From positions 120,177-184,176 of the forward strand of contig LSMX01000003.1 in NCBI GenBank assembly GCA_001641205.1: a stretch of 64,000 nucleotides of DNA. Direction: 5' to 3'. Shown piece by piece: positions 17,967-64,000 of the stretch; position 1 is the stretch's first letter; every line of letters begins with the position of its first letter. The stretch comes from Mycoplasma sp. Bg1. Lineage in GTDB: Bacteria > Bacillota_I > Bacilli_A > Mycoplasmatales > Hepatoplasmataceae. The notes beneath the pieces are model-generated. The model was not told the DNA's origin. It searched no databases and saw nothing but the letters and a program-made list of their open reading frames with translations. Made by a program: the position numbers and the translations under genes.

Positions 17967-17987
17967 TGGCTGAGCCATTATTTTTTT
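17964..17987. terminator. bidirectional rho-independent terminator between convergent genes
   Basis: Stem taatggc/gccatta (17964..17970 and 17974..17980) with a 3-nt loop. T7 lies downstream and an A-run upstream. It overlaps both convergent stop codons. Confidence 0.55.
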
Positions 17988-18613: not shown

Positions 18614-18614
18614 T

Positions 18615-19277: not shown

Positions 19278-19294
19278 TTTTAACCAACATATTA

Positions 19295-19951
19295 TTAATC
19301 TAAAATAATTGCAATAATTTCTTTTACAATTTCTTTTGGTTTTTTATTTTCTGTATTTATTTCCACAAAATTATTTACATTTTGTTGAAAATGATTTTTA
19401 AACATTGGACGATCATAATAGTTATGATAAAGATCTCTTCAATATTCTTCTGGAGTTTCAGTTTCTACTTCTCGCCCTCTTCCTTGCAAACGTTCCATTA
19501 CTGTTGGTAATGAAGCTTTAAGCAAGAAAAAATAATCTGGTCTTGCATCAAGTTTTGTCATTTTGTCAGTCAATTCTTTATAAATTGCTTGATAAGTAAT
19601 TGAATTAAACATTGAAATATTTTCTTTAATTGTATGTAATTCAGCAAAAACATAATCATCTAGAAAGTGACGATCATAAACAGTAATATCATTTTCTTTT
19701 TCTTTTGGAGTTAATTTAGATTGTCTTTTTTCATCTACTAATCATTGTTTAAATCTTCCTAAAAGAAAATCTAATTGAGCAACAAAAGCTCAATCCTGTG
19801 GTGATTTATAATAATAATCTAAATAAATTGAATTTACTGTTTCTTCATTTAGGAAAGAAACATTAAATCCTTTATTTTCTAATTCTTTTTTTAATAGTTT
19901 AGAAGTAGTGGACTTCCCAATCCCTACTGTTCCAGAAATTACAATTCTCAT
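19295..19951 (-). CDS. deoxynucleoside kinase, paralog 3
   Basis: MRIVISGTVGIGKST, then the same-family pattern (..YDRHFLDDYVF.., ..RGREVE..) read through TGA codons. Confidence 0.75.
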
Positions 19952-40958: not shown

Positions 40959-41918
40959 TTATTTTTTAATTGTAGAAACTGCTTTTAGGGTTACTTCTTT
41001 TAAAGTAGAAACAGATTCAATAAATTGTTTTTTTTCTTTTTCTGAAAGATCTAATTCAAAAGTACGAATAATTCCTTCTTTTCCAATTAAACAAGGAATT
41101 CCTGCATAAGTTCCTTCCATCCCATATTCTCCAGAAAGAAGTGCTCCCGTTGCAAAGACTCTTTTTTCATCTCTTAAAATTGCTCTTGCAATATCAGTAA
41201 GGTTCATTCCAATTCCATAATAGGTTGCTCTTTTACGATCAATAATTTCATAAGCTTTTTTTCAAACAGTTTCATGAACTTTTGCAAGTTTTTCCTCTGT
41301 AAGTCCATATTTATCATATAGTGTTGATAGTTTAACTCCATTTAAAGTTGCAACTGAAAATGTTGAAACTGATGAATCACCATGTTCTCCCATTACATAA
41401 ATTCCAAAATCTCTTGGTGCTGCGTCTTCGATTAATTTAGATAATTCTAATTTTAATCTTGATGTATCAAGTGCACATGATGCTGAAATAACTTTACTTG
41501 GTTCAAATCCTGTAACTTGTTGAAAAACTGTAGTCATCACATCAACAGGATTTGAAGCAACAATTGTCACTCCTTCAAACCCATTTGCTTTAACTTGATC
41601 AGCAATTGATTTCATAATTTTGACATTATCTTCAACCATTGCAAGTCTTGTTTCACCTGGTTTTTGAGGTCTCCCTGCAGTAATTACAAGTAAATCTGCA
41701 TCTTTTACAAGTTCATAACCACCATTTTCAACAATATAATCTGTTGCTGTAGTTCCTCTTCCATCTTCAAGATCAAGTTTTTGACCATAAGCAACTTCTT
41801 CATTAATATCGATAATTCCATAATATTTTGCTAAATTTTGATTTGTTGCTGCATATAAGAATGACATCCCGACAAATCCCGCACCAATAAGCACTACTTT
41901 GTTTGTTGTATTTTTCAT
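40959..41918 (-). CDS. ldh: L-lactate dehydrogenase (canonical specificity loop)
   Basis: VVLIGAGFVGMS (Rossmann fold), loop ITAGRPQKPGETR (Gln102/Arg109 equivalents), LDTSRL, GEHGDS. Two same-frame pieces joined by TGA. Confidence 0.88.
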
Positions 41919-42087
41919 TTTTTCTCCAATAATAATTATATTTCTATTATATTACTAAATAATTAAGGAAATTTAAATATTTTAGATGGTTTGTTTTTTA
42001 TAAAAAAATAAAACAATTAAATAAAATAAATTTAATTTTTTTCTAATATTATTTAAATAAATTATTTAAATAAAGTAAGGGAAAAAC

Positions 42088-42321
42088 ATGAAAACAGAAA
42101 CAGACATAAAAACATTTTATTATTTAGGATTAATCTTTTTATTTATAGGATTATCAATATTTTTTGGAGTATTAGCAGGTTACTGTCATGAAGGAATAAA
42201 ATCTGCAAAGGATAGTTCTTATTATACTGCAACATTAAATCAGCATTTAATTTACTATTCATTTATTCTTTTGATATTTTTGCAATTCTTTTTACAATAT
42301 ATTCATTTAATAATTTTTTAA
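42088..42321 (+). CDS. small 2-TM membrane protein (77 aa), member of the repeated TM-module family
   Basis: ..KTFYYLGLIFLFIGLSIFFGVLAGY...LIYYSFILLIFLQFFLQYIHLIIF. Same layout as the two modules inside 48771..49517. Confidence 0.5.
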   Translation: MKTETDIKTFYYLGLIFLFIGLSIFFGVLAGYCHEGIKSAKDSSYYTATLNQHLIYYSFILLIFLQFFLQYIHLIIF

Positions 42322-42542
42322 ATTGTTTAAACGAAAAGAAAAAATTAAAATATGAAACTAATTACAATCCTATTAATTTTAAAAATACTCAAAATTAATA
42401 AAATAATAGGATTAAATATACTGTTTTAAATTAAAACCCTCAAAACTTTAATTTTTTATTTTATAAATAGCCTCCAACAAGAAAGCACTTTATTTTTAGT
42501 ATAATTATATTATTATATTCACAAAATAAAGGAAAAATAACT

Positions 42543-42977
42543 ATGCCACGAAGAAGAAGGGGTAAACCCATTATGACAACTGCTGTAACTATGAGTGCAA
42601 TGTCAAATAGAAAAACAAATAAAATGCAACAACAGCAAATGCAACAACAACAAACTCAGCAAACTCAACAACAACAAAATTATGCTACAGCACAAGACCC
42701 AATGCAACCTGCAACTCCTGTTCAACCAGAAGTAGTTGCACCAATAAAAGAAGAAGAACAAGCAGATCAAATTAGAACTATTGCTTCTGCAATTTCACTT
42801 TATCGAAAAAAAGGTTTAAGTTTTGCAGAAATCTTTACCAAAGTTGAAGCTTATAATAAAGGTTTTAAAAGTGAAGAAGATTTTAAAAAAGGATATTTAG
42901 ACTTTGTAAATGAAGAAGCAATTACTAATCCTAAATGAGAATCTGTACTTGAATTTGAACTAGAGCACCAAGAATAA
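42543..42977 (+). CDS. Arg/Gln-rich protein with conserved C-terminal domain, paralog A (144 aa)
   Basis: MPRRRRGKPIMTTAVTMSAMSNRKTNKMQQQQMQQQQTQQ.. then IRTIASAISLYRKKGLSFAEIFTKVEAYNKGF..W(TGA)ESVLEFELEHQE. RBS aaaggaaaaa and a tataat box lie upstream. Confidence 0.7.
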
Positions 42978-43017
42978 AATTCTAATTTAAATTTATAAAT
43001 TTGTTTATTATTAAAAT

Positions 43018-43047
43018 AAAAAAATAGGAATTAATTCCTATTTTTTT
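43018..43047. terminator. terminator hairpin (aaaaataggaatt/aattcctattttt family), copy 1
   Basis: Palindrome centred at 43032/43033 and flanked by A-run and T-run, so it could act in both directions (Q-rich gene on plus, ldh-like 2 on minus). Confidence 0.6.
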
Positions 43048-43128
43048 ATTTTCTTTATGTAATTTAAAATTTCCACTTTACAAAAAGCATTAATTCTTAT
43101 ATTAAGACTAATCTTATCTTTTATAATT

Positions 43129-44097
43129 TTAATTCTCTTCCCTAATTATAGAAAATGCTTTTAAGTTTAATTCTTTTAAAATTGAAATAGATTTAATAAA
43201 TTTAGCTTTTTCTTTTTCTGAAAGATCTAATTCGAAAGTTCTAATAATTCCTTCTTTTCCAATTAAACATGGAATTGCTGCATAAGTTCCTGCAATTCCA
43301 TATTCCCCCGAAAGAAGTGCTCCCGTTGCAAAAACTCTTTTTTCATCTCTTAAAACTGAACAAGCAATATCAACTAAAACCATTCCAATTCCATAACTAG
43401 TTAATCCTTTACGATTAAAAATTTCATAAGCTTTTTTTCAAACAGTTTCATGAACTTTAGCAAGTTTTTCTTCTGTAAGTCCATATTCTTCATATAATGT
43501 TGATAACTTAACTCCTTTTAATGTTGCAGCTGAAAATGCTGCAACAGAAGAATCTCCGTGTTCTCCCATTATATAAACATCAAAATCTTTTGGGGCTGCA
43601 TTTTCAATAAGTTTTGAAAGTTCTATTTTAAGTCTTGAAGAATCAAGAACACATGAAGCTGAAATTACTTTATTTGGTTCAATTCCAGTAATATGTTGAT
43701 AAATTATTGAAGCAGCTTCAAGTGGAGCTGAGGCAATAATAGTTATTCCTTTAAATCCGCTTGCTTTAACTTGAACTGCAATTGATTTCATAATTTTTAC
43801 AGTTCCTTCTAATAAATCATGTCTTGTTCCACCTGGTTTTAATGGTCCTCCCCCAGCAGCAATAATAAGTAAATCTGCATCTTTTAGAAGTTCATATCCA
43901 CCATCTTCTACAATATAATCACTTTCAATAGATCCTCTTCCATCTTCAAGATCAAGTTTTTGGCCATGAGCAAATTCACTTTTTAAATCAATAATTCCAT
44001 AATATTTTGCTAAATTTTGGTTTATTGCTGCATATAAAAATGATGTTCCTACATATCCAGCACCAATAACTACTACTTTATTTGTTGTATTTTCCAT
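43129..44097 (-). CDS. LDH-family 2-hydroxyacid dehydrogenase, variant specificity loop (paralog 2)
   Basis: VVVIGAGYVGTS, LDSSRL, GEHGDS, but the loop reads IAAGGGPLKPGGTR. That is one extra residue, Leu in place of Gln102, and Gly in place of the Glu before Thr-Arg. Confidence 0.8.
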
Positions 44098-44228
44098 TTC
44101 TACTCCTATTATAATTATTTTTTTAATCCTTAAAATTAATAAATATAAGACATTCTATGATCTTTATACCATTTTAAAATTTTTAAGTGAACTTTTACCT
44201 CTACTTAGGTTTTATTCCATAAATAACT

Positions 44229-45197
44229 TTAATTCATTTCTTCAATTATAGAAAGTGCTTTTACTTTTAAATCTTTTAAAACCAAAACAGATTTAATAAA
44301 TTGAGTTTTTTCTTTTTCTGAAAGTTCTAATTCAAAAGTACGAATAATACCTTCTTTTCCAATTAAGCAAGGAATTCCAGCATAAGTTCCTGCAATTCCA
44401 TATTCTCCTGAAAGAAGTGCTCCCGTTGCAAACATTCTTTTTTCATCTCTTAAAATTGAACGTGAAATGTCAACTAAAGTCATAGCAATTCCATAACAAG
44501 TTAATCCTTTACGATTAAAAATTTCATAACCTTTTCTTCAAACAGCTTCATGAACTTTAGCAAGTTTTTCTTCTGTAAGTCCATACTCATCATATAATGT
44601 TGAAAGTTTAACTCCTTTTAATGTTGCAACTGAAAAAGCAGAAACTGATGAATCTCCATGTTCTCCCATTACATAAATTCCAAAATCTTTTGGAGCTACA
44701 TTTTCAATAAGTTTTGAAAGTTCTAATTTAAGTCTTGAAGAATCAAGTGCACATGAAGCTGAAATTACTTTATTTGGTTCAAATCCAGTAACATGTTGAT
44801 AAATTGTTGTTGCTATATCAACTGGATTTGAAGCAATAACAGTTACTCCTTTAAAATCATTTGCTTTAACAGAAACTGCAATTGATTTCATAATTTTTGC
44901 GGTATCTTCAAGTAAATCAAGTCTTGTTCCGCCTGGTTTTAATGGCCCACCACCAGCAGCAATTATAAGCAAATCTGCATCTTTTACAAGTTCATAACCA
45001 CCATCTTCTACGATATAATCAGTTCCAATAGATCCTCTTCCATCTTCAAGATCAAGTTTTTGGCCATGAGCCATTTCTCTATTTAAATCAATAATTCCAT
45101 AATTTTTTGCTAAATTTTGGTTTATTGCTGCATATAGAAATGAAGTTCCTACATATCCGGCCCCAATAACTACTACTTTATTTGTTGTATTTTCCAT
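44229..45197 (-). CDS. LDH-family 2-hydroxyacid dehydrogenase, variant specificity loop (paralog 3)
   Basis: Same variant loop IAAGGGPLKPGGTR. Very similar to paralog 2 along its whole length. Confidence 0.8.
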
Positions 45198-45453
45198 TTT
45201 TTCCCCTCCAATAATTATATTTCATTATATTATTAAATATTTAACTGATTTAAAATATTTTAAAAAATCATTATACATAATTTATAAATTAAAAAAAACA
45301 AATTTATACTACAATAAAAAAATAAAATTAATAAAAACTTTAATTACATAAATAAGTTAAATTAATTTTAAAATAAACTTATTAATTGAGGAATAGATCT
45401 TATTTAGTATAATTTTATTATTATATTTATGAAATAAAGGAAAAAAAGTAATC

Positions 45454-45879
45454 ATGCCAAGAAGAAGAAGGGGAAGACCTCTTATGACAACCGCTGTAAC
45501 AATGAGTGCATTATCAAATAGAAAAACAAATAAAATGCAACAACAACAAATGCAGCAAGATCAACAAACGCAACAACAAAACTATGCAACAGCACAACAA
45601 CCAATGCAACCTGTTGCGCCTATTCAACAAGAAGTAGTTGCGCCAATACAAAAAGAAGAACAAACAGATCAAATTAGAACTATTGCTTCTGCAATTTCCC
45701 TTTATCGAAAAAAAGGATTAAATTTTGCAGAAATCTTTACTAAAGTAGAAGCTTATAATAAAGGCTATAAAAATGAAGATGACTTTAAAAAAGGATATTT
45801 AGATTTTGTAAATGAAGAAGCAATTAGTAACGCTAAATGAGAATCTGTACTTGAATTTGAATTAGAAAACCAAGAATAA
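45454..45879 (+). CDS. Arg/Gln-rich protein with conserved C-terminal domain, paralog B (141 aa)
   Basis: MPRRRRGRPLMTTAVTMSALSNRKTNKMQQQQMQQDQQTQQQ.. ..IRTIASAISLYRKKGLNFAEIFTKVEAYNKGY..W(TGA)ESVLEFELENQE. Its upstream region is homologous to that of paralog A. Confidence 0.7.
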
Positions 45880-45908: not shown

Positions 45909-45941
45909 AAAAAAAATAGGAATTAAATTCCTATTTTTTTT
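45909..45941. terminator. terminator hairpin (ataggaatt/aattcctat family), copy 2
   Basis: aaaaaaaataggaattaaattcctatttttttt. Confidence 0.6.
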
Positions 45942-45956
45942 ATTATTATCTAAATT

Positions 45957-46354
45957 CTAATATGTATGTGTTGCTTCTTTTCCTTCAAGAATATCAACAC
46001 CGTTTGAAGTTCCAATTCTACTTGCCCCAGCATTAATATATGCTTCAGCATCTTCGTAGGTTCTAACTCCACCTGCAGCTTTAATTTTTGTATCAGGATT
46101 AATATTATCTTTCATAATTTTTACTGCTTCTAAAGTAGCTACTGAACAATCAATTCCTGTAGAAGTTTTTACAAAATCTCATTTTGCATTACTTGCAATT
46201 CTTGATGCTTTTGCAATTTGATCATCGCTAAGAAGAGCAATTTCTAAAATAATTTTAATTGTTGTTCCTTCTGTTGCAGCTCTAATTGCTTTTAGCTCAT
46301 TTTCAACGTATTCTCAATCTCCTGATTTAATCATGGAAACATTAATTACATAAT
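45957..46354 (-). pseudogene. deoC 3' fragment (about 132 C-terminal codons), copy 1
   Basis: Near-identical (a handful of mismatches by eye) to 49854..50251 of the intact deoC, including the stop codon. Homology ends abruptly after ..aattacataat at 46354. No 5' part and no start codon. Confidence 0.85.
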
Positions 46355-46555: not shown

Positions 46556-47176
46556 TTAGTTATTTATAATATTAAATATTTTTCTTGCAAACTGAAAATA
46601 TTCTTCTGTAGGTATTATTTTTGTTATTGGAATATCATAATTACTATGTACAATTTTATTTCTTTCAGAAATTATTTTTTTTCAAAGTTCATTATCATTA
46701 TTGGTTAAATTTTCAAAATTATCAATAATTAAAGAATGATAAAAATGATTATTTTTATTTTTTGTATTTAACAAAATAGAAATATCTTTTTTAACATTAC
46801 AGTTATTTCAAGTTTTGTTATTTAAAAAATCACTAATAAGTTTTATAAATAATTTTTTATTAAAATCATCAATATCCTCTCTTAACAAAATTTTGCCAGT
46901 AATTCTACTTATTTTTTCTCTATTATTGATATTTTCATCACTTAAAGATCTTTCAAAAAAATATTCAGACATTTTTGAAATAATATTTTTATCTAAAAAT
47001 TTATAACTTTCATTTTGAATACTCATTAAAACAAAATTTTTTCATTTGGTTTCTATTTCAGATACAATAAAAATATAAAAATACTCCACAATTATTTTTT
47101 GTTTAGGTGTAGTTACATCAAAAGAACTATTTTTAAGTTTTTTTTCCAGATAATTTAAGATTTCTATGTTTTCCAT
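46556..47176 (-). CDS. HEPN-like protein (206 aa) with C-terminal R-x4-H motif
   Basis: ATG at 47176 lies 1 nt after the DUF262 stop. The C-terminus ..ELW(TGA)KKIISERNKIVHSNYDIP.. contains RNKIVH (Rx4H). Codons 46556..46700 were hand-translated. Confidence 0.5.
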
Positions 47177-47177
47177 T

Positions 47178-48407
47178 TTAAATAATTAAATAATCACTAA
47201 ATGCGGTAAAAATTTTAGTATATTTCAACATTAATTGATTATTATTTCCTGTTCCTATTTTCAAACTTAAAAAAAATTTTTTTTCTTTATCATTAATAAA
47301 AAGAGATTTATAAATTTCTTGAAATTGCTGTTTTGAAATTTTTTCAAAATCTAGATATTTAAATAAAATTAATGTTGCCTCTGCCAAAGAAATATTAATT
47401 TTATTATCAAAATTAAAAAAATTCTCATTTTTTGAATTAGAATAAATTCTAAATATTTTAATTCCATCAAAATATTCTTTTAATTTATACATTAGCTTAT
47501 TTAAATCATTAATAATTTGCTCATTTTTTTCAATAGAATTTTTTGATGCTAATTTCATATAATTGTTTATTAAATAAATAATTCTTCCATTATAATCCAA
47601 AATTTTAATAGAAATTTCATTAAAATTATTTCTACTAAGTCTTATTTTTTCATAAAAAGACAAATATCTAAAAATAAGTTCGGTGTTTTTCATTCTTTTA
47701 ACAAAAACAGAATTTAGTGTTAAGTTTTCAAAAACTTTTCACTCTAAATTATCATTAGTAAATTTTTTGATTTTAGAGTTTAAATCACTTCTATAAATTG
47801 CATTACGTAATTCTTGAGTATTTAATTTCATAGATCCTTGGTTTAATCTAGAAAAAATATCAAATTTTAAAGATTCATCAGATCCTTTTCTAATTCTTAT
47901 TGTTTGTAAAACTTGAGTTTTTAAATAATTTTGGACTCCTATATTTAATTCTTCAAATTTTTTGCCATTTAAATTTTCAAATGATTCTAAACCTCTTAAT
48001 TTTCATTCATTATGTAAAAATGTTTGAATGGTTGTTAATCTTTGGACACCATCTATAACGTCAAATTTTGAATTTGTAGTTTCAAATAAATAAACTGGAG
48101 GTATAGTAATATTAATTAAGAGTGATTCAATAAATTTTGCTCCATTTAATATTGATCAAACAAAATTTCTTTGAAATTCTGGACTAATATTTCAATCTTC
48201 ATCATCTAATCTTCTACAAATATCTTGCAATTCAATGTTGGTGGTATCTATTATTAATGATTTAGGTTTTCAACCTTTTTCTTGATTATTAGCTTCATCA
48301 CTATCAAATTCTTCTTCTTTTTCATCATAACCAGAGTTTTTTTCAAAATCATCATTTTCTTTAGTCAAAATTGGTGCAAACTCTAATTCCTTAATTTTAT
48401 TATTCAT
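47178..48407 (-). CDS. DUF262 (ParB/GmrSD N-terminal-like) domain protein, 409 aa
   Basis: ..NISPEFQRNFVW(TGA)SILNGAKFIESLLINITIPPVYLFE..FDVIDGVQRLTTIQTFL (QR..W and DGxQR motifs). Acidic N-terminal extension. No DUF1524/HNH-type C-terminal domain recognised. Confidence 0.7.
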
Positions 48408-48492
48408 AATATTCCTTTTTATAATTATATAATTTTAAATAAACTAATTTAAAATTACTTTATTATTTAAAATAAATTTTGCATTTTTATAA

Positions 48493-48518
48493 AAAAATAG
48501 GAATCTAGTTCCTATTTT
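48493..48518. terminator. terminator hairpin family, copy 3 (degenerate loop)
   Basis: aaaaataggaa tctag ttcctatttt. Confidence 0.45.
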
Positions 48519-48530
48519 AATATTTAAAAT

Positions 48531-48756
48531 CTAATATGTATGTGTTGCTTCTTTTCCTTCAAGAATATCAACACCGTTTGAAGTTCCAATTCTACTTGCC
48601 CCAGCATTAATATATGCTTCAGCATCTTCGTAGGTTCTAACTCCACCTGCAGCTTTAATTTTTGTATCAGGATTAATATTATCTTTCATAATTTTTACTG
48701 CTTCTAAAGTAGCTCCTGAACAATCAATTTTTGTAGAAGTTTTTACAAAATCTCAA
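48531..48756 (-). pseudogene. deoC 3' fragment (about 75 C-terminal codons), copy 2
   Basis: Near-identical to 49854..50079 of the intact deoC. Homology stops at ..acaaaatctca, and 15 nt further on comes the stop codon of the next gene. Confidence 0.85.
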
Positions 48757-48770
48757 TTTAAAATAATTGC

Positions 48771-49517
48771 CTATTCTTGATTTTCCAATTCAAATTCAAG
48801 TACAGATTCTCATTTTTGATTAGTAATTGCTTCTTTATTTACAAAATCTAAATATCTTTTTTTAAAGTCCTTTTCATTTTTAAAACCTTTATTATAAGCT
48901 TCAACTTTAGTAAAAATTTCTGCAAAATTTAATCCTTTTTTTCTATAAAGGGAAATTGTAGAAGCAATAGTTTTAATTTGATCTATTTGTTTTTCATATA
49001 TAGATGCATCTGTCTCTAATTGAATATGGGCAGTAGTTTGTACTAATTTTAATGGTGTTTCATTATTATATAAACAAAGTATGCTTTTTATTATTCAATA
49101 TATTGATAAAAAAATTGTAAAAATGTCTATAAAAATAAATGCAATATAGAGAGAGTTGATTCAACTTGAAATCCCTACAGAATTAAACATTAGATCATTA
49201 ATTTCTTTTGTATATATTCCAAATAAAATTGCTAAGCCAAAAAATAAGAAGAATAAACCAAAATATATAATTACTTTAAATTGGTTAATATTTATATTAT
49301 TTTTGTCTATTTCTAAACAAAATATAATTTTTATTATTCAATATATTGAAAATAAAATTGCAAAAATATCGAAAAAAACAAAACTAGTGCGCCGTGCTCC
49401 ATAATATCAATGAAAATGATGTGCAATTACCCCAAACACAATTGCTAATGCTAAAAATAAAAATAATAATCCAAAATATAATATTACTTTAAATATATTC
49501 TTCTGTTGCAAATTCAT
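48771..49517 (-). CDS. fusion protein: two tandem 2-TM modules + the conserved C-terminal domain of the Arg/Gln-rich family (248 aa)
   Basis: I translated codons 49517 down to 48972 one by one and read the remaining 3' codons down to the TAG at 48771 by eye; no TAA/TAG was seen. MNLQQKNIFKVILYFGLLFLFLALAIVFGV..FDIFAILFSIYW(TGA)IIKIIFCL / ..NQFKVIIYFGLFFLFFGLAILFGI..FIDIFTIFLSIYW(TGA)IIKSILCL, then ..DQIKTIASTISLYRKKGLNFAEIFTKVEAYNKGF..WESVLEFELENQE. Confidence 0.7.
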
Positions 49518-49803
49518 TATTTTCCCCCAACAATTTAATAGTCTTATAATTTTAATTATATATTTAATGATAAAATAATGATTTAAATATATATTTATCT
49601 CCTATTTTTAATATATAAAATTATGTAATATAATAGCAATCTTCATATAAACATTTATATTTTTAAATATTTTTATTCACAATTCCTTTTTGCAAAAAAA
49701 CTAAATAATCAAGTGATTTTTAATTTTAAATAAAAATTTATAATCAATTCTATACTAGAACATCAAGAATAAATTTATAAATAAATATCATCAAAAATAA
49801 ATT

Positions 49804-49832
49804 AAAAAATAGGAATTAACTTCCTATTTTTT
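49804..49832. terminator. terminator hairpin family, copy 4
   Basis: aaaaaataggaa ttaac ttcctatttttt, directly downstream of the intact deoC. Confidence 0.6.
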
Positions 49833-49853
49833 AATGTTTATTATTTATAAATT

Positions 49854-50516
49854 CTAATATGTGTGTGTTGCTTCTTTTCCTTCAAGAATATCAACACCGT
49901 TTGAAGTTCCAATTCTGCTTGCCCCAGCATTAATATATGCTTCAGCATCTTCGTAGGTTCTAACTCCACCTGCAGCTTTAATTTTTGTATCAGGATTAAT
50001 ATTATCTTTCATAATTTTTACTGCTTCTAAAGTGGCTCCTGAACAATCAATTCCTGTAGAGGTTTTTACAAAATCTCATTTTGCATTACTTGCAATTCTT
50101 GATGCTTTTGCAATTTGATCATCGCTAAGAAGAGCAATTTCTAAAATAATTTTAATTGTTGTTCCTTCTGTTGCAGCTCTAATTGCTTTTAGCTCATTTT
50201 CAACGTATTCTCAATCTCCTGATTTAATCATGGAAACATTAATTACATAATCAAGTTCATCAGCACCTCTTCTAATTGCATCTTGGCCTTCAAAAACTTT
50301 AGCTTCGGTAGTTTGAGTTCCATAAGGAAATCCAACTACAGCTGTAATTCCAATGTTATTTGCATGTAATCTTTCTTTTACATAGTCAATTCACATTGGG
50401 TGAATACATAATGTAATAAAATTTCATTTAATTGCATCTTCTACGTATTTATCTAAAATTTCTTTTGTTGAATCTCTTTTAATTAAAGTGTGATCAATAT
50501 ATCTATTTAATTCCAT
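49854..50516 (-). CDS. deoC: deoxyribose-phosphate aldolase
   Basis: MELNRYIDHTLIK.., CIHPMW(TGA).., VVGFPYG.., W(TGA)DFVKTSTG (Schiff-base Lys), AAGGVRT. 220 aa, with TAG at 49854. Confidence 0.9.
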
Positions 50517-52100: not shown

Positions 52101-53398
52101 TTATTCCTCCAAAGTAGACATATAGTAAAATATCATTTCGATGATATTTACTGCAATTGAATTTCCTGCCTGTTTATAAAGCTTTTCTCTTGCTTGATTA
52201 TCTGTCTTAGCTCGGTATTTTTTAGTAACAAGAAGCATCTCTTTTTTAGCACTTTGATACTGCTTTTCACTAAAACCCATAAGAAGATATGCTTCTCTTG
52301 GGGTAATAAATCTTCAATTAGTATAATCAACTCCATTATTATCAAATCTTTTATTATTAAAAGCAACTGATCCACAATTTGGTAATCTATCCTGTTTTGT
52401 TGTTACTGTTGGAATATGTTTTAAATTAATATCAATGCAAGGAGAAGAATCAATCATTCTTATTCTTGAAGGAGTATTTTTAATTTGTGCTCAAAGCGAT
52501 TCTTCAAAATCTTTATTAGAAAAATCTATTAATTTCTTAATAGGTTTTTTATTTTTTGGTTGATAAATTTTACAAGTATAGATTTTTTTTAAAATAATTT
52601 CAAGATCATCTCTTGTTCCTTTTCAAGAAACTATTTCATTATTAGGATCATAAATAGAAAAAGCATAAACACGGCGTCTTTTTTGGACCATTCCAAAATC
52701 ACTTGAATAGAGCATTCCCCAAATTGTTTTATAACCTAAAAGCTCTAATTGCTCCATCCAAGCATCAAAGTCTGCTCGATGTTGTTTTTGAACTAAATTA
52801 GGAACATTTTCAAGTAGGAGGAATTTTGGTAATAAATTTGGGCGTCTCTCTCTCTCTCTCTCTCTCTCTCTTCTTGAATTGCTTTAAGATTTATTAAAAC
52901 CTTTTCAATTTCAAGAAGTAACCCTGATCTGGTATGGGCTTTTATTCCCTCATTAAAGCCGTGAAAATTACCTGCAGTAGATAAATCAGTACAAGGAAAA
53001 GAATAAGTAAGCAAGTCTACTCCATTGTTATCTTCAATTATTTTTTTTATTCTAGTAGTTGAATCTACTATAGTTCCAATGTTACTAGCAACTTTGAAAG
53101 CTTTATATCAATCAAGTTTTACTTCTTTTTTAATTGTAGAAGTATTTAAAAAAGGTTTTGATCCATCAAGACTAAAAGTATTTTTTTTAATTCAATTATC
53201 AAGTTCATCATCAGTTGGAGTTTTAATCTTACTTCGATAATTTTTATAATGAATTGCAGCATAGGACTGAGCAGCAAAAACATCCCAATCGGATGTTCCT
53301 ATAATTTCATAATCAAGAATGCCTTTACTCTTTAAGTTTTTTAGGGCAGTATTTTGTGCTCCAATTCCACTAAAAGTTTCAATAACTTTAAATTTCAT
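52101..53398 (-). pseudogene. DNA (cytosine-5)-methyltransferase, out of frame at an internal (GA)13 tract (candidate phase-variable gene)
   Basis: 5' frame: MKFKVIETFSGIGAQ (motif I), SFPCTDLS (motif IV). After the repeat, the motifs continue in another frame: RPNLLPKFLLLENVPNLV (VI), QKRRRVY (VIII), ITPREAYLLMGF, GNSIAV (X). Total length is 1298 nt, which is not a multiple of 3. Confidence 0.85.
52845..52870 (-). repeat. (GA)13 dinucleotide tract inside the methyltransferase ORF
   Basis: Thirteen tc units on the plus strand, counted directly. 12 or 15 units would restore a single 431/433-aa frame. Confidence 0.95.
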
Positions 53399-53608: not shown

Positions 53609-54733
53609 ATGAAGAAACAATATTTAATTGGTTTACTAGGACTTACAATAATATTTACCCCAGTTGCAAATAGTTTATTAAGTACCAATTCAAAATTATT
53701 TAATTCTACATATACAAATAATCAAATACAAGAAGAATCTATAATTAACGAAGAAAATAGCCAAGTAATTGTAAAAGATCTTGATAATGATGGAAAAGCA
53801 AGTCAGGGTGATCAAATTGATGAAATACAATTTAGTGCTAATTATGATGAATTTTATCCTCTTTATGAAGATAAATCTAAAACTACTTCATCTAATGAAT
53901 ATGGATTAAATATTTATCCAGAAAATTCACCTAATACTGTAAAACCTTTTTATAGTATTTCTTATAATCAAATTGATGAGTTAAATCAAAATCAAAATGT
54001 AGACTTTTTAAATTTTGATTTTAATTCTACTAATAATCCAACTTGAAAAATTTGAGATGCAAAACTTCCTGATAGTAGTCAAGAATTTATCATAACTGCA
54101 GAAAGCAAAAAAGATAATCATCAAGAAAAAATAATAGAAAATAATATTGGTGAGGTTTCAATTACACCATATATAAAGGATGAAAATGACTGAAGCGAAC
54201 CAAAAGTTTATGATGCAAAAGTAACCGAGAATCCAACTGGTGCATTTATGAACCCACAAGCAACTATCTCCTATGAAGTAGATTATGGTAATAATGGAGG
54301 TGACCGTGGTGGAAAAAAATATCAATTGACAAAACTAGAAATCATTAATATAAACGGTACTGAAATTAAAAATGGTACAAAATATGCAGACAAAGCAAAC
54401 CAAGGTAGCATTGGAGATGATGATTGATTGATAATACTAACTCCTAATACATATTATGATTTATATATGAAGGCAATTTTTCATGACCCTGATGATAAAA
54501 ATGCTGAAGGAATTACTCAAACAGTAAAATTTGATGATGATAGTGGCAAATTTGATACTTTTGATGATAAAGATCCTGATCCCACACCGCCCATTCCCAC
54601 ACCGCCCATTCCCACACCACCTGGTCCTTCTAGTAGTAATACAATGATAATGATTGGAATAATAATTGGAGTTATACTCTTTGTTGGAATTATTTCTTTC
54701 ATCGGATATTATTTATATAAAAAAAATAAATAA
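53609..54733 (+). CDS. surface protein family member 1 (374 aa): signal peptide, ectodomain, Pro/Thr stalk, C-terminal TM anchor
   Basis: MKKQYLIGLLGLTIIFTPVANS.. (no lipobox Cys), DLDNDGKASQGDQIDE, PTPPIPTPPIPTPPGP, then IMIGIIIGVILFVGIISFIGYYLYKKNK. Pieces 53609 and 54428 share one frame and are joined by TGA. Confidence 0.75.
54581..54620 (+). repeat. 15-bp tandem repeat encoding the PTPPI stalk (about 2.7 copies)
   Basis: cccacaccgcccatt cccacaccgcccatt cccacaccac. Confidence 0.85.
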
Positions 54734-54752
54734 TAAAGTTAAAAATAACATT

Positions 54753-54782
54753 AAAAAAAGTAGAGATATTTCTACTTTTTTT
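54753..54782 (+). terminator. rho-independent terminator after surface gene 1
   Basis: aaaaagtaga gatatt tctacttttttt. Confidence 0.6.
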
Positions 54783-54821
54783 AATTTTACTATTCATTAT
54801 GTTTTTTATTAATTGGAGTTT

Positions 54822-54995
54822 TAATCTTACATCAATTATTATAATAAATCACAACATTAAGTTGAGCAACAAAAACATTCTACTTAAAATATTTTTATAA
54901 TTTTGAAATAAAAAAATACCTTTATTCTTTAAGTTTTTTAAAGCAGTATTTTGTGCTCTAATTCTGCTAAAAATTTCAAGAACTTTAAATTTCAT
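54822..54995 (-). pseudogene. decayed copy of the methyltransferase 5' end
   Basis: MKFKVLEIFSRIRAQNTALKNLKNKG.. versus MKFKVIETFSGIGAQNTALKNLKSKG of the full gene. Internal deletions, with motif I destroyed. Homologous to about 53214..53398. Confidence 0.8.
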
Positions 54996-55193
54996 ATAAA
55001 AAATTATATGTAAAAGTAAAGATAAAACTATTGTATATAATGATTTAATAATATAGAAATTCAATATTTAAAAACATGATAATAAATCTTTTACCACATA
55101 AATTGTGTTTATCTTTTTTTTTTTTTTTGTTATTACATTATTATAAATTTATAGATAAATAGCAAATTTTAAGAAAGGAATAAGTAAATAAAT
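54996..55193. repeat. duplicate of the 53399..53608 divergent intergenic/promoter region
   Basis: Same sequence blocks (..taatatagaaattcaat.., ..ttaccacataaattgtgtttatc-Tn-gttatt.., aagaaaggaataagtaaataaatATG). Confidence 0.85.
55113..55128 (+). promoter_or_regulatory. T16 homopolymer upstream of surface-protein gene 2
   Basis: 16 consecutive T, counted. Same position as the T15 tract in the paralogous promoter. Confidence 0.5.
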
Positions 55194-56651
55194 ATGAAGA
55201 AACAATATTTAATTGGTTTACTAGGACTTACAGTAATATTTACCCCACTTGCAAATAGTTTATTAAGTACCAATTCAAAATTATTTAATTCTACATATGC
55301 AAATAATCAAATACAAAAAGAATCTATAATTAATGAAGAAAATAGCCAAGTAATAGTTAAAGATCTTGATCATGATGGAAAAGTAAGTCAAGGAGATCAA
55401 ATTGATGAAATACAATTTAGTGCTAATTATGATGAATTTTATCCTCTTTATGAAGATGAAACTAAAACTACTTTATCTAATGAATATGGATTAAATATTT
55501 ATCCAAAAAATTCGCCCAATACTATAAAACCTTTTTATAGTATTTCTTATAATAAAATTAATGAGTTAAATCAAAATCAAAATGTAGACTTTTTAAATTT
55601 TGATTTTAATTCTACTAATAATTCAACTTGAAAAATTTGAGATGCAAAACTTCCTGATAGCAGTCAAGAATTTATTATAACTGCAGAAAGTAAAAAAAAT
55701 AATAATCAAGAAAAAATAATAGAAAATAATATTGGTGAAGTTGCAATTTTATCATATGTAAACAATGCAAATGGGCAAGATAACCCAACAATAACTTCTG
55801 CAAGAGTAACCAAAAAAACATTTTTTTCTACATACATAAATGTTAAGGTTGACTATGAAGTAGATCTTGGCAATAATGGAACTAGTAGAATTAATAATAA
55901 ATACAATTTAACAGAAATTATAATCACTAATAAATTGGATCATAATAATCCAGTATATTCTGTGGATAAATCTAGTGCTAAGGGCCACTTAACTTTTGAC
56001 CTGCCACTTGGTGTAGACTATGATTTAAGCATGACAGCAATTTTTGATGACCCCGCGAGTTCTTCTAAAAAATCTGATACAGCTGACATCATAGGTGGTA
56101 ATATTGTAGATACTGAAAGAAAGCCTAAATTTGATTATCCAACTGCAGTTAAAATTGATACGAAAAATAATATTTTAGAAATTAAGGGAGAAATTTCTAC
56201 TAATGGTTCTAAAATAAATTCATTGTGGCTTACAAATGAAAATCATGATGTTGAAACTTGAATATATAAATATGATGATAAAGGAGATACATTTTATTAT
56301 GATATCTGGACTCCTGATTACACTGAAAATACTACAGATAGTCTTAAAAATTATAATTTAGGAGTGTGATACACCCTAAATGTAAATACCGATTATTATT
56401 CTATTGGTCTTTGACAAGTTTTAGAAAAAGATAGAACAACCGGTGAAGATTTAAGTTATTTGGAAGATGATTCTTATTATCAAGGCAATACTTCTGGAGG
56501 AGATGATTCTTCTGATGGAGGCGGTTCTGAAGGAGGTGGTTCTTCCAACAATAATAATACAATGATAATAATTGTAATAATAATTGGAATTGTACTTTTT
56601 GTTGGAGCTATTTCTTTCATCGGATATTATTTATATAAAAAAAATAAATAA
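55194..56651 (+). CDS. surface protein family member 2 (485 aa)
   Basis: N-terminal 145 aa are nearly identical to member 1. Gly/Ser/Asp-rich stalk (GGDDSSDGGGSEGGGSS) and the same C-terminal anchor (IGIVLFVGAISFIGYYLYKKNK). Pieces 55194, 55935 and 56460 share one frame. Confidence 0.75.
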
Positions 56652-56670
56652 AAAGAAAGGGAAAACAAAT

Positions 56671-59600
56671 ATGAAGAAGCAATATTTAATTAGTTTATTA
56701 GGACTATTTGCAATATTTGCTCCGCTTGGAAATGGAATAGTAAACACAAAATTAAATTCTTCAACTAATGAAAAAACTACTGGGATAGCGATGAAAGAGA
56801 CTAGTAAAATTTCTCTAATTGATAGTGATGGTTCAAAGGATGTAAGTACAAGAGATAAAATAAATTCTATTTCATTTGATGGAGAATGAGTTTTTGAAAA
56901 TTGAGGAGGAAAGGAATATTATGATGTAGATGATCCTTCTAAAGAAGGTTTAAATTTATATGGTTCATCAAAACCAGATGAACCTTTATTAGAAGTTTCC
57001 TATAAAACCCTTAAGAACAAAGGTACTTATGATTTAAGTGATGACTCTGATATTTTAACTTATAGTATAGAAGCAAATTCTTTAAATAATACAGAAGTAA
57101 AAATATGAGGTTATGAAATTGCTATAGGAGAAACTTTTGAAATAACTGCAGATTATAATTCAACTAAAGAACCAAAAAATATAAAAGAGGATAATCTTGG
57201 AACAATTGAATTGACAATATCTGATCCAAGCACAATTAAACGAACTAGCAATGTTGAAGTTACCATAACTCCACTTGAAGCAAAAGTAGATTATAAAGTA
57301 ATTCCAGGATTAGATACTAGTGGTAATCTTGAAACAGTTGAATTTGTAAGATGAATGAATGGATCATGAGAACTTGCAAGTTCAGAAAAAGAAGAAGATA
57401 CTTTAATTGCTACAAGTCCTAAATTAGAATCAGATGTAAATTATAATAATACAACACTTATAGCTAGAATGAGTGGTGGATGAACTGAATCAGTAGAAGT
57501 TGACCCTTTTAATACAATTTCAAAAAATGAGCCATCCACAATCGACCGAATTGGTAGAGCCCAAGAAACTAGTTCTACTGAAGCAAATGTTAATTATGAA
57601 GTAGATCCCGGAAAAGATGTTAATGGCCAAGATTTAACAGTTATTGAAGTTAAATGAATGGATGGTACAGAAAGGCTTGCAACTTCAACAAATACAAAAG
57701 GTACTTTAATCGCCACTGATTTAATACCAAATCACTCATATAAAAATACAATAATAGTTGCAGAAATGAGTGATGGAAGTTTTACTAATGATGCTAAAAT
57801 TAATGACTTTAAAACTAAAAAAGGTAAAACAAAATCTTCAATTAAAGAAGTTGGTACTGTTAATGTAACTGGGCCCAACACTGCGAATGTTGGTTATGAA
57901 GTAACTCCCGGAACTGATAAAAATGGTGATCTTTTAACAGTTGAAAAAGTAGTTTGAATAAAAGGTGCACAAACAGATGGTAAACCAGAACTTGCAACAG
58001 ATGATGAGGACAATGGAATTGATGGAATTTTAGAAACCGATAGTTTAAACCCAAGTCAGAAATATGAAAAAACAACACTTAAAGCCAAAATGAGTGATAA
58101 TACATGGACTGACCCTGCTCAAGTTGAAACTTTTACAGCAGGTCAAGATATATCAACAATTGAACAAGTTGACAATGTTAGTGTAACTAGTTATAACTCT
58201 GCAAGTGTCAAATATAAAATACACTGTGGAAAGAATGTTGATGGCGAAGATTTAACAGTTAAAGAAGTGCAATGAGTAGAACATTCAGGACAAACAAAGC
58301 TTGCTTCTGAAAAAACAGAGGATGAAAATGGTGTTTTATACACCACTAATTTAGAAGGAAATTTATCTCATGATACAACACTTAAAGCCCAAATGAGTGA
58401 TTATTCGTGAATTGAAATTGATGTTAGATCTTTTGAAACCCCTGCATGTAATGAACCATCGACAATTGAAAAGGTTGATGACATTAATGTAACCAGTTCT
58501 ACTGAAGCAAATGTTAGTTATAAAGTAAACCCTGGAAAAGATGTTTATGGTCACCCAGTAACAGTTAAAAAAGTAAGATGAATGGATGATAATAAAGAAC
58601 TTACAGCTTCACTAGATACAGAAGGCACTTTATATGCACATGATTTAAGCCCAAATCAAACATATTATAATACATATATAATTGCTGATATGAATGCTGG
58701 AGAACAAACAAATACAGTTTTAGCAGGAACATTTACAACAGAACCAGGTAATGTTAATTCAAAAATTAAGGAAGATGGAGAAGTTGAGGTTACTAGCTCC
58801 ACAGAAGCAAATGTCAACTATACTGTAACACCAGGAAAAGATGTCGATGGAAATGATGTAACAGTTGAAAAAGTAGAATGAATAAATGGTGAAGACATTC
58901 TTGAAACAAATAAAGGTAATGGAATTGATGGAATTTTAGAAGCAGATGAATTAAGTCCAAATCAATCCTATAATAATACAAAAATAATTGCTTATATGAG
59001 TGATGGAACCAAAACAAGACCTGTTAAAATAGAACCATTTCATGTATTACCTGGTGATGAACCTTCAGAACTTAATAGTGATGGAAAAGTTGATATAACT
59101 AGTTCTACAGAAGCAAATGTTAATTACACTGTAACACCAGGAAAAAATGTTGATGGAAAAGATGTAACAGTTGAAAAAGTAGAATGAATAAATGGTGAAG
59201 AAATTCTCGCAATAGATAAAGGTAATGGAATTGATGGAATTTTAGAAGCAGATGAATTAAGTCCAAATCAACCCTATAATAATACAAAAATAATTGCTTA
59301 TATGAGTGATGGAACCAAAACTAATGTAATTAATGTTGGTTCATTTCAAGCATGACCTGGTGATGAACCATCAACAATTAAACAAGATGGAATAGTTAAT
59401 GTAACTAGCTCTACTGAAGCAAATGTTAACTATACTGTAAGACCAGGAAAAGATGTTGATGGAAATGGCTTAACAGTTATTAAAGTTAAATGAATGAATG
59501 GTGATGATATACTTGCAACTTCAACAGAAGCATCTGGAAATTTATCAACTAATCAACTAATTGCAGAACAAATTTATGATAATACAACAATAGTTGCAGA

Positions 59601-60156
59601 AATGAGCAATGGAACTTCAACTAATATTATTGAGGTTGATCCATTTCTAGCACATCCAAGTACACCAGTTAATAAGCCAACTGCAATTAATATTGATGAA
59701 CCAAATGGAATTTTACAAGTTGAAGGAAATATTACATTAAATGAAGCAACTGCAAAATCAATAGATGTTAATATTATTAATGAAAAAGGCGACATTGTAA
59801 CAACAGGTTGTGAAATTATTGATAATGGTGATAGTATTTCTTATAGTGTCTTTACTGATCAATATAATGGAAATATAGATAATTATAGATTACAAATTAC
59901 TTATGAAATTGATGGTAAAAAACAAGAACCACTTGAAAATGAATATATAGATATTCAAGAACCAAAAAACATAACAAATGAAGATGCAGATTTATCTAAT
60001 TTAATAGACAATGATGATGGCGATGATAATAATGGTGAGACTGGTAATACAAGTAGTAGTAAACTTGGATTAATAATAGGTATTGTGGCAGTAATCACAA
60101 TTTTATTTTCTGCAGTAATGGGATTTTTCTTATTTATAAAACTTAAAACTAAATAA
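56671..60156 (+). CDS. giant surface protein family member 3 (1161 aa) with tandem beta-rich repeats and C-terminal TM anchor
   Basis: MKKQYLISLLGLFAIFAPLGNG.., DSDGSKDVSTRD, repeats, then acidic DNDDGDDNNGE and the anchor LGLIIGIVAVITILFSAVMGFFLFIKLKTK. All pieces (57658, 58090, 58582, 58996, 59494) share the frame of ATG 56671. RBS aaagggaaaa. Confidence 0.75.
57352..59790 (+). repeat. about 7.5 tandem coding repeats of 300-318 bp (about 102 aa) in surface gene 3
   Basis: Unit boundaries fall at in-frame TGA(Trp) codons 57352, 57655, 57955, 58273, 58579, 58879, 59185 and 59491. Consensus: W-x-[DN]-G..LA...G.L....L.PN..Y.NT.I.A.MSDG..T....F.....PS.I...G.V.VTSSTEANVNYTVTPGKDVDG.D.TV.KV. Confidence 0.85.
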
Positions 60157-62221: not shown

Positions 62222-64000
62222 TTAATATTTATCTCCTCAATATTTTTTAACTATTTGTGATATTTCAGTTGATCTTTTGAGAATATTATCAATATTAAAA
62301 TCTATAACATCTAATTTAGTTAAAACTCCATTTATTCCATCAAGAGTTAATGATTTAGCTTCATTATTTATAGTATTACAATATTCTCTAATATTATCTT
62401 TATATAGTAAACTTCTTTTAGAATTTTTAGCAACAAAATAATTTCCAATCATATCTATATATTCAGGATATTCTGATTTTATTTCATCATATGAAATTTC
62501 ATCTGTTTCATTATTTAATTGATTAATAATTTCTTCTGTATAATTTGGCGGCAATAATTGAAAAGCATTTAATAAACTATTATTATTGCTAAAATTGTTT
62601 TCAATTGTAGACAATATTGTTTTACACATATTGCTACTATCTATTGGCCGTTTTGCAATAAAATTAATAAATGTATTTTCAGGAATCATTTGAAATTGTA
62701 AATCTATATCATTTACAAGAAAATTTCATAAATCTTTTGGAATTTTGATTTCATTAGTATTAATTGCTTTTATAACTTTATATACATATTTTCCAAGTGA
62801 AGCTAATCTATCTCCAGAAATACTTCTTCTAATATAATGAATTTCCATAATTTTAAGCATTTCACTAAAATCATTATCATTATTAATTTTTAATAATTTT
62901 GAATCAAATTGATCAAAAGTTCCATTGATTAAAATTAAGTTAGAGATAATTGGCAAAATAATTGAATTTGACATAATTATTTTAGCATCATTATAAAATG
63001 GTTTTAAAACATCAATTTTTTCAAAATTATGAATATTACTTGCAAGAATAAATACTTCTAAATATTTTCCTAAATTACTAATAAAATTTTCAAAATTTTC
63101 AAATGAAGTAATTTTATTATTTACATCTACATAATTTTTTACAAAATAATGTTTAAATCTTTTATAAATTGTTAAATCATTTCTTCATTCATATATATTA
63201 TTAGAAACATTTAAATAAAATACAAAAAAATCATCTTGAGCACGTTCAATAGTAGATTTTGTATAATAATTTTCAAATTTAACTTGAATATGATTTTCAA
63301 ATAAATTAATTATTTTCAAATCATTTTCTCTATAAAGATTTTCATCAATAGAGCTTAATAAAAAATTTTTAATTTTGTCATAATTTGTTAACTGTTTAGA
63401 TTTTGAATTTAAATTTTCAAAAATTTCAAATTCATTAATATCCTTTTCAAACCATATAATACCCACTTCAAGTTTTGATAAGGCACAAAGTAAATTGATA
63501 ATATAATCAGAAGCATCAGCGTTTTCATTTATTTTTGAGAAAATGTAATTTTTCATATAATTATAATTTTGATAAACTGAACTTTCCTTATATTGTCTAT
63601 TTGTATATATAGAATCATTTAGTAGAACTTTTTCATCACCTAATAAATAATATTTCAAAAGATTTTGTGTTCTTTCATTATTAATTCTATTTTTCAAAAA
63701 ATTAATTAACAAAGAATTTTCAGTATTAAATAATTCATTTAATAGTTTACTAGATGTAATTTTGTTTTTAAGACAAACATCATAAATTGCTCTTAACAAT
63801 AAAAGAATTGTTGTTATTCTTTGTTGACCGTCCATAATGGAAAAAGAATTTTCTTTTTCTGAATTTCTTCCAAAACTTAGAACTCCGAAAAAATATGAAA
63901 AAATTGTTTTTTCATTATTTATAATTCCTTCTAAATCAAAAAGTAATTCTTCAATATTGGATCTTGATCAATCATAATTTCTTTGATATGGTGGTACAAA
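62222..64000 (-). CDS. large DUF262-family protein, 5' end beyond the window (at least 592 aa)
   Basis: ..VPPYQRNYDW(TGA)SRSNIEELLFDL.. and SIMDGQQRITTILLL (DGQQR). Pieces 63185, 62726 and 62237 share one frame. I translated the 62975..63184 gap codon by codon and it is open. TAA at 62222. Confidence 0.7.

Follow-up and report, generated by a model that had tools for sequence, protein, structure and literature searches.

Leu102 paralogs of lactate dehydrogenase in a Bathynomus symbiont are candidate 2-hydroxyacid dehydrogenases with a remodeled substrate pocket

The 64,000-nucleotide stretch of Mycoplasma sp. Bg1 DNA analyzed here (contig LSMX01000003.1, positions 120,177 to 184,176 of the forward strand; the window) contains three paralogous genes of the L-lactate dehydrogenase (LDH) family, designated c1, c2, and c3. 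Position 102 of LDH and malate dehydrogenase (MDH) is a textbook single-residue specificity switch, and within the canonical LDH clade natural departures from Gln102 are regarded as rare. The interpretation that we favor, with somewhat better than even confidence, is that c2 and c3 arose by lineage-specific duplication of the housekeeping LDH c1 and were neofunctionalized into NAD-dependent L-2-hydroxyacid dehydrogenases with a remodeled pocket for the substrate side chain.

Reading frames in the window, which has a GC content of about 26%, were taken with the Mollicute genetic code (table 4, TGA = Trp). In the table-11 list of open reading frames (ORFs), each LDH-like gene was broken at a single in-frame TGA into pieces of 218 or 219 and 82 or 84 amino acids, because table 11 treats this codon as a stop. 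Under table 4 the three genes are intact minus-strand frames of 319, 322, and 322 amino acids (Table 1), and the coordinates and loop sequences that an earlier note on this DNA had given for them proved exact. Both c2 and c3 have strong Shine-Dalgarno sites, and the region upstream of c3 is similar to that upstream of c1, with TATAAT boxes (repeat family D5).

Residues were numbered according to LDH convention by HMMER alignment to solved LDHs. The earlier note had proposed that Gln102 is replaced by Leu in two of the copies and that their loop is longer by one residue. The alignment bears this out: Leu, and no Gln, stands at position 102 in c2 and c3, and the extra residue lies N-terminal to it. 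The c1 loop is encoded by GGG AGA CCT CAA AAA CCA GGT GAA ACA AGA and that of c2 by GGG GGA GGA CCA TTA AAA CCA GGT GGA ACA AGA, so that the c2/c3 loop differs from that of c1 by a GGA insertion and by R100G, Q102L, and E107G. The A-to-G changes and the GGA insertion oppose the AT bias of this 26% GC genome. The single extra Gly falls between residues 99 and 101, and the segment from 102 to 109 (LKPGGTR) is of canonical length. Across the loop at 97–116 the two copies have in common T97A, the added Gly, R100G, Q102L, E107G, M112L, and N116T. In helix alpha2G they carry I240F, A245L, and Y247S (c2) or Y247C (c3), with A236G in c3 alone. All three proteins keep Arg109, Asp168, Arg171, and His195, as the note had stated for c2 and c3, and also Thr246 and the NAD-binding Asp.

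The substrate pocket was compared at 16 first-shell positions (102, 109, 112, 140, 167, 168, 171, 195, 199, 236, 237, 239, 240, 245, 246, and 250), the first shell being the residues within 6 Å of the substrate, a list that includes Asn140 (PMC4109310). c1 departs from the family at none of these positions and c2 and c3 at five each: Q102L, M112L, N140A, I240F, and A245L in c2, and Q102L, M112L, A236G, I240F, and A245L in c3. The catalytic set of c3 (Arg109, Asp168, Arg171, His195, and Thr246) is complete, and Leu167, Ile239, and Ile250 are kept as well. Among the 115 nearest homologs outside this genome, all 115 have Gln102, which puts the Leu102 variant far outside chance, and 104 have no first-shell departure; c1 and GLR43 differ at 102 other residues and at none of the 16. 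In two of the 115, three and four first-shell positions, respectively, deviate from the family consensus, so other Mollicute-related LDHs may also be remodeled. A Fisher test for enrichment of substitutions in the first shell of c2/c3 relative to the rest of the protein was not significant; the first-shell signal is a contrast with homologs that leave those sites unchanged. A degenerate DNA pattern for GGPLKPGGTR gave zero matches in JGI metagenome contigs. In a genome collection without this genome, a scan with c3 alone returned no relatives, and an alignment-based scan recovered only Bg2 and GLR43.

Bathynomus, a deep-sea isopod, harbors Mycoplasma sp. Bg1 and Bg2 in its stomach; both symbionts belong to the Hepatoplasmataceae, and their average nucleotide identity is about 84% (PMC10928387, PMC7301438). 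The window is 80–86% identical to the corresponding Bg2 locus, and synteny is conserved in the order patatin, aspS, hisS, a membrane protein of 1065/1082 amino acids, LDH, deoC, an HNH gene, and a methylase. At this locus Bg2 has one canonical LDH, and the window has c1 followed by an expanded segment. c1 is 89% identical in amino acid sequence to the Bg2 LDH and is the canonical housekeeping enzyme and the ortholog of that single Bg2 gene; c2 and c3 are 74–77% identical to c1. The nearest protein outside this genome is P0004, on contig LSMY01000002.1 of Bg2. The earlier note had counted three LDH-family paralogs. Three are intact in the window, and the 314,564-nucleotide contig holds five in all, a number that agrees with the note's remark that so many are unusual in a reduced genome. 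The two outside the window are P0005 (321 amino acids), a natural variant in which Q102R gives the MDH-type specificity residue, with the loop ITAGRGRKQGETR (GRGRKQGETR) and all catalytic residues, and P0006 (319 amino acids), with the loop GTTRKVGEEI and Arg102. P0006 is probably inactive, because it has lost Arg109 (to Ile), Asn140 (to Ser), Asp197, and Tyr237. Each of the five paralogs is a singleton cluster in a collection of 15 billion proteins. In a neighbor-joining tree the five form a clade together with the Bg2 LDH (98% bootstrap), within which c1 pairs with the Bg2 LDH (97.5%) and c2 with c3 (100%). c2 and c3 arose within the Bg1/Bg2 lineage from an LDH with the canonical Gln102. Of the clades against which the note had suggested placing them, LDH, L-2-hydroxyisocaproate dehydrogenase (HicDH), and MDH, they nest in the first and are not members of the HicDH clade. 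No LDH expansion in Hepatoplasmataceae was found described in a literature search that did not cover Wang et al. 2016, the original Bg1/Bg2 genome paper.

Pairwise dN/dS values by the Nei-Gojobori method were 0.145 between c1 and the Bg2 LDH, 0.42 between c2 and c3, and 0.34–0.38 between c1 and either of them. Along the stem of the c2/c3 pair, parsimony counted 40.5 non-synonymous and 10.5 synonymous changes, corresponding to an omega of about 1.1. Branch estimates were then obtained with a maximum likelihood (ML) codon model written for this analysis (code 4, five taxa, three codon-frequency settings). For the stem, omega ranged from 0.23 to 1.25; the background value was rejected (p ≤ 4e-4) and a value of 1 was not. 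For the c3 tip it was 0.06–0.31, with 1 rejected (p ≤ 0.002), and for the c2 tip 0.13–0.46, with 1 rejected (p ≤ 0.019) and a value above background (p ≤ 0.006); c1 had the lowest omega of the set. These estimates point to a post-duplication burst on the stem, followed by renewed, somewhat relaxed purifying selection on c2 and c3. Within a 15-residue segment around the new loop, c2 and c3 are identical in protein and differ by 5 synonymous and 0 non-synonymous changes.

To place the derived residues in the wider superfamily, 149 diverse representatives clustered at 50% identity were aligned. At this position, residue 102, 83 of them have Gln, 21 have Arg, and about 45 have another residue (Leu in 6); loop lengths often vary, and Asn140, Arg109, Asp168, Arg171, and His195 are essentially invariant. 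Several states found in c2/c3 are associated with enzymes that have neither Gln nor Arg at 102: Ser or Thr at 116 (17/43, vs 0/83 in the Gln102 class; p = 9e-10), Gly236 (29/43 vs 6/83; p = 2e-12), Phe240 (5/43 vs 0/83; p = 0.004), and Ser or Cys at 247 (16/43 vs 10/83; p = 0.002). Natural representatives with Leu102 commonly have Gly236 and, at 240, an aromatic or large residue.

Compared with known systems, c2 and c3 are closest to canonical L-LDHs. If a protein scored above 303.55 bits with TIGR01771, the NCBIfam equivalog model for L-LDH, it was taken to pass; c1 did (330.9), c3 fell just below (302.7), and c2 fell below (287.2). An AlphaFold2 model of c3 was confident (pLDDT 94.6, pTM 0.92), with low values, about 68, in the mobile loop alone, and superimposed on bacterial L-LDHs with TM-scores of 0.94–0.96, indicating the canonical fold. 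The best matches in the Protein Data Bank, by sequence and by fold, were likewise bacterial L-LDHs. With the canonical enzymes (TIGR01771; 9JLO, 1EZ4, 3PQD, and 1LDN) c2 and c3 share this fold and Arg109, Asp168, Arg171, His195, and Thr246. Of the full canonical set of catalytic residues, Asn140, and Thr246, c1 and c3 have every member and c2 all but Asn140, which is Ala. c2 and c3 differ from these enzymes in Leu102, the added loop residue, the changes at 112, 240, and 245 (and at 236 in c3 and 140 in c2), and the scores below the cutoff; Gln102 is considered a signature of canonical LDHs (PMC10583557). The L-HicDH of Weissella confusa (1HYH) and its clade (PMC4109310) resemble c2 and c3 in having neither Gln nor Arg at 102, a longer catalytic loop, and retained catalytic residues (Asn140 being lost in c2). 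1HYH has Thr116, Gly235-Gly236, Leu240, Tyr245, and Ser247, and thus has in common with the variants Thr116, Ser247, Gly236 (c3), and hydrophobic residues at 245 (bulky) and at 240 (other than Ile). The HicDH clade has at least 4 extra residues between 102 and 109 (4 in 1HYH), whereas c2 and c3 have one residue N-terminal to 102 and are nested in canonical Mollicute LDHs. Membership of c2/c3 in the HicDH clade was ruled out by the bit scores (238.8 to canonical LDH vs 141.6 to 1HYH), by the class scores outside the loop given below, and by the tree. Identity as MDH was also ruled out, since LDH-like malate dehydrogenases require Arg at 102, as found in P0005 and P0006, and c2/c3 have Leu. In engineering work, Wilks et al. 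(1990, Biochemistry 29:8587) reportedly broadened the LDH of B. stearothermophilus toward branched 2-oxoacids with Q102M/K103V/P105S plus A235G/A236G. That enzyme is like c2/c3 in its hydrophobic residue 102, altered loop flexibility, Gly236 (c3), and combined use of the loop and helix alpha2G; c2/c3 are natural, have different residues, and carry N116T, I240F, and A245L in addition.

If c2 and c3 are neofunctionalized, their chemistry would be unchanged, with NADH delivering hydride to C2 of a 2-oxoacid, His195 and Asp168 serving in proton donation, Arg171 binding the carboxylate, and Arg109 polarizing the carbonyl upon loop closure. The hydride-transfer machinery (Arg109, Asp168, Arg171, His195, Thr246, and a Rossmann fold with the NAD-binding Asp) is retained, and the stem burst of amino acid change falls on the two mobile elements that close over the substrate, the loop at 97–116 and helix alpha2G. 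An apolar and more flexible pocket formed by Leu102, Leu112, Phe240, Leu245, Gly236, and the Gly-rich loop is predicted to move preference from pyruvate to larger or more hydrophobic 2-oxoacids. Candidate substrates are 2-oxobutyrate, 2-oxoisocaproate, other keto acids derived from amino acids, and possibly phenylpyruvate, and the proposed role is NAD+ regeneration in a peptide-rich gut niche. The earlier note had predicted that both variants are active dehydrogenases; c3, which keeps every catalytic residue, is the stronger candidate for full activity, whereas activity of c2 is doubtful because first-shell Asn140 is lost, and c2 is probably catalytically weakened or further specialized.

With less than even confidence, we also tentatively consider a broader reading of the whole family, in which the five paralogs, with Gln, Leu, Leu, Arg, and Arg at 102, represent a recent natural radiation. 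Lactate, HicDH-like hydrophobic 2-hydroxyacid, and malate dehydrogenase activities otherwise absent from this minimal genome would have arisen from one enzyme, replaying the Q102R and broad-specificity engineering of LDH, and c2, which has lost Asn140 yet is under purifying selection, would be a specialized or non-catalytic subunit. Such a radiation would include only the second documented natural switch from canonical LDH to MDH, the sole case cited in the literature consulted here being that in Planctopirus (PMC10583557).

Several observations weigh against neofunctionalization. Positive selection on the stem is unsupported, since omega there does not exceed 1, and transient relaxation fits equally well; the counting-based omega for the c2 tip is 0.67, not significantly below 1; and conservation of the loop between c2 and c3 is suggestive at P = 0.085, with about 2.5 non-synonymous differences expected. 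c2 lacks the otherwise invariant Asn140 and Asp143 (ASNPVD to ASAPLE). The window contains no aminotransferase or other gene that would supply 2-oxoacids. When the log-odds shifts of the c2/c3 substitutions toward the non-Gln/Arg class were summed, the total did not differ significantly from that of uniform random replacements (p = 0.63, or 0.86 without the loop), and Mann-Whitney comparisons of class log-odds between c2/c3 and their sibling paralogs were not significant either. Outside the loop c2 and c3 score as canonical LDHs (class log-odds of -44 and -51, respectively, vs +131 for 1HYH). Given this global null result and these canonical scores, convergence is claimed at single sites alone; the convergence on HicDH-like states is site-specific, and c2/c3 were derived independently of that clade. 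Finally, Leu stands at 102 in the pyruvate-specific LDH of trichomonads, and in an ancestral MDH the R102L change leads to higher activity on pyruvate (PMC4109310). The Trichomonas vaginalis enzyme has Leu at the 102-equivalent position, as c2/c3 do, and is unlike them in deriving from a cytosolic MDH rather than from a canonical LDH. Since it is pyruvate-specific, Leu102 alone does not exclude pyruvate.

Because Leu102 is compatible with pyruvate in both of these settings, a serious rival, although one that we think improbable on balance, is that c2 and c3 are still pyruvate-reducing isozymes. The changes would then tune Km, substrate inhibition, loop closure, response to pressure or temperature, or regulation, and the copies would serve dosage or act as condition-specific isoforms. 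The complete catalytic set of c3, its score within reach of the equivalog cutoff, and the grouping of c2/c3 with canonical LDHs outside the loop are all consistent with this. It accords poorly with the uniform Gln102 of the 115 close homologs, which is regarded as the LDH signature (PMC10583557), with five coordinated first-shell changes, far beyond what kinetic tuning usually needs, and with Thr116, Gly236, and Phe240, states essentially absent from Gln102 enzymes (Gly236 in 6/83). The note's interpretation is upheld in part. Its prediction of a bulkier or more hydrophobic substrate is strengthened by pocket remodeling (4–5 of 16 positions), by the HicDH-like states at 116, 236, 240, and 247, and by purifying selection after the post-duplication burst; the fit of Leu102 to pyruvate and the null global test for convergence do not favor it.

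Another reading, which we consider distinctly unlikely, is that one or both of c2 and c3 are superfluous copies on their way to losing function in a stretch prone to recombination, and that their loop and pocket changes are damage. The stem omega near 1, the loss of Asn140 and Asp143 from c2, the loss of Arg109, Asp197, and Tyr237 from the sibling P0006, the abundance of gene fragments in the region, and scores of c2 and c3 under the equivalog cutoff would all fit decay. Neither gene, however, contains a stop or frameshift, their Shine-Dalgarno sites are intact, omega = 1 is rejected on both tips in all three ML settings, the derived loop is the same in c2 and c3 despite 5 synonymous differences, and c3 has its catalytic residues and a confidently folded model. 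That the tandem copies are an artefact of a short-read metagenome assembly, in which LDH variants of strains or species were joined in one contig, is hardly credible, even for a draft from a sample with two related symbionts, Bg1 and Bg2 (PMC10928387, PMC7301438): the copies differ by 17–26% in protein from one another and c2/c3 by 25–29% from the Bg2 LDH, and so are not Bg2 reads, flanks and intergenic sequence differ from copy to copy, all five paralogs lie together on the 314-kb contig, and assemblers usually collapse repeats rather than expand them.

The surroundings of c2 and c3 agree with the earlier note's description of a scrambled region, as the Bg2 locus has a single LDH and the window has duplicated small ORFs, deoC fragments, and an inserted GmrSD/HEPN-like gene pair. 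The expanded segment comprises the second copy of a small Gln-rich ORF, c2, c3, repeated hairpins, deoC 3' fragments, and this gene pair. The Gln-rich ORF, duplicated along with the LDH unit, is present once at the Bg2 locus (130 amino acids) and matched no Pfam family above its cutoff. Its C-terminal domain of about 70 residues (IRTIASAISLYRKKGL...WESVLEFELE) also ends a predicted membrane protein of 248 amino acids. An AT-rich palindromic hairpin occurs in four copies, which mark the 3' ends of convergent genes and the borders of duplicated segments; the first lies between the convergent small ORF and c2 and the second after the other small ORF. The first is likely a bidirectional terminator and a duplication boundary, and the four may be terminators, recombination sites, or both. 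A consensus terminator scan did not call the first hairpin, because its stem is AT-rich. The deoC fragments, which accompany a full gene, read as footprints of segmental duplication.

The GmrSD_N-domain protein (409 amino acids, E = 4e-23) and its weak HEPN-like partner (206 amino acids), located between the LDH array and deoC, have no counterpart at the syntenic locus of Bg2; another GmrSD_N protein is encoded further along the window, and these loci are likely defense islands. Two ORFs, matching Pfam positions 128-320 and 44-99, make up a split C5 cytosine DNA methylase, and a further copy of an N-terminal fragment (MKFKVLEIFSRIRAQNTALKNLKNKG...) adjoins an HNH gene, an arrangement that looks like a decaying or phase-variable restriction-modification system. 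Another tandem array of paralogs consists of three deoxynucleoside kinases (PF01712) of 234, 220, and 218 amino acids. Three consecutive predicted surface or lipoprotein-like paralogs of 374, 485, and 1161 amino acids share a near-identical N-terminal region of about 190 residues (MKKQYLIGLLGLT...), and the first two have a C-terminal transmembrane anchor. The 374-residue protein, the sole one of the three scanned, had no Pfam match, and GC skew is locally reversed over the three genes.

Table 1. Positions of the LDH-family genes, their distinguishing segments, and neighboring features in the window
Feature	Position	Strand	Remarks
Three tandem deoxynucleoside kinase paralogs	17978-19951	-	PF01712
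c1, canonical L-LDH	40959-41918	-	319 aa; Gln102; table-4 translation
c1 in-frame TGA (Trp)	41262-41264	-	
c1 specificity loop AGRPQKPGETR	41646-41678	-	canonical; ITAGRPQKPGETR
Small Gln-rich ORF (MPRRRRG...)	42543-42977	+	144 aa
AT-rich palindromic hairpin AAAAAAATAGGAATTNAATTCCTATTTTTT, four copies	43018-43061, 45910-45953, 48491-48534, 49803-49846	.	first copy AAAAAAATAGGAATTAATTCCTATTTTTTT, repeat family D9, inverted repeats I5/I7
c2, variant LDH paralog	43129-44097	-	322 aa; Leu102, +1 Gly loop, N140A, D143E; table-4 translation
c2 helix alpha2G segment VWKKAYEIFNRKGLTSYGIG	43384-43443	-	I240F, A245L, Y247S
c2 in-frame TGA (Trp)	43438-43440	-	
c2 motif ASAPLE	43717-43734	-	replaces invariant ASNPVD (Asn140, Asp143 gone)
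c2 rewritten specificity loop IAAGGGPLKPGGTR / AGGGPLKPGGTR	43822-43857	-	HMMER alignment
c2 Shine-Dalgarno AGGAG	44103-44107	-	
c3, variant LDH paralog	44229-45197	-	322 aa; Leu102, +1 Gly loop, Asn140 and full catalytic set; table-4 translation
c3 helix alpha2G segment VWRKGYEIFNRKGLTCYGIA	44484-44543	-	A236G, I240F, A245L, Y247C
c3 in-frame TGA (Trp)	44538-44540	-	
c3 rewritten specificity loop IAAGGGPLKPGGTR / AGGGPLKPGGTR	44922-44957	-	HMMER alignment
c3 Shine-Dalgarno GGAGG	45205-45209	-	
Small Gln-rich ORF, second copy	45454-45879	+	141 aa
deoC 3'-half fragment	45957-46334	-	98% identical to full gene
GmrSD_N protein and HEPN-like partner	46556-48407	-	
deoC third partial copy	near 48525-48824		83% identical
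Predicted membrane protein	48771-49517	-	248 aa; shares C-terminal domain of Gln-rich ORF
deoC, full gene	49854-50516	-	
C5 cytosine DNA methylase, two ORFs	52101-52757, 52793-53398	-	
Three surface/lipoprotein-like paralogs	53609-60156	+	GC skew locally reversed
Methylase N-terminal fragment copy	54690-54995	-	adjoins HNH gene
Second GmrSD_N protein	62222-63835	-	

Enzymes with a residue other than Gln or Arg at 102 and with altered loops are already known as a class. The new element is that c2 and c3 arose recently, in one lineage and from within the canonical Mollicute LDHs, and that this happened in a reduced genome, beside an unchanged parent and Arg102 siblings. They repeat in nature what enzyme engineering has classically done and offer a tractable natural experiment; they are neither a new kind of enzyme nor the sign of a new principle. 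The paralog set is young and datable, and it adjoins the unchanged parent gene, which has an ortholog in a sister genome; because of this, the exact mutational path, about 40 stem substitutions of which five fall in the first shell, can be read. That path can be rebuilt in vitro, making neofunctionalization, epistasis, and loop remodeling accessible. If the favored interpretation is true, a gut symbiont with a minimal genome would have widened its redox-balancing repertoire by reusing one scaffold, for example to reduce keto acids derived from amino acids inside an isopod that feeds on carrion.

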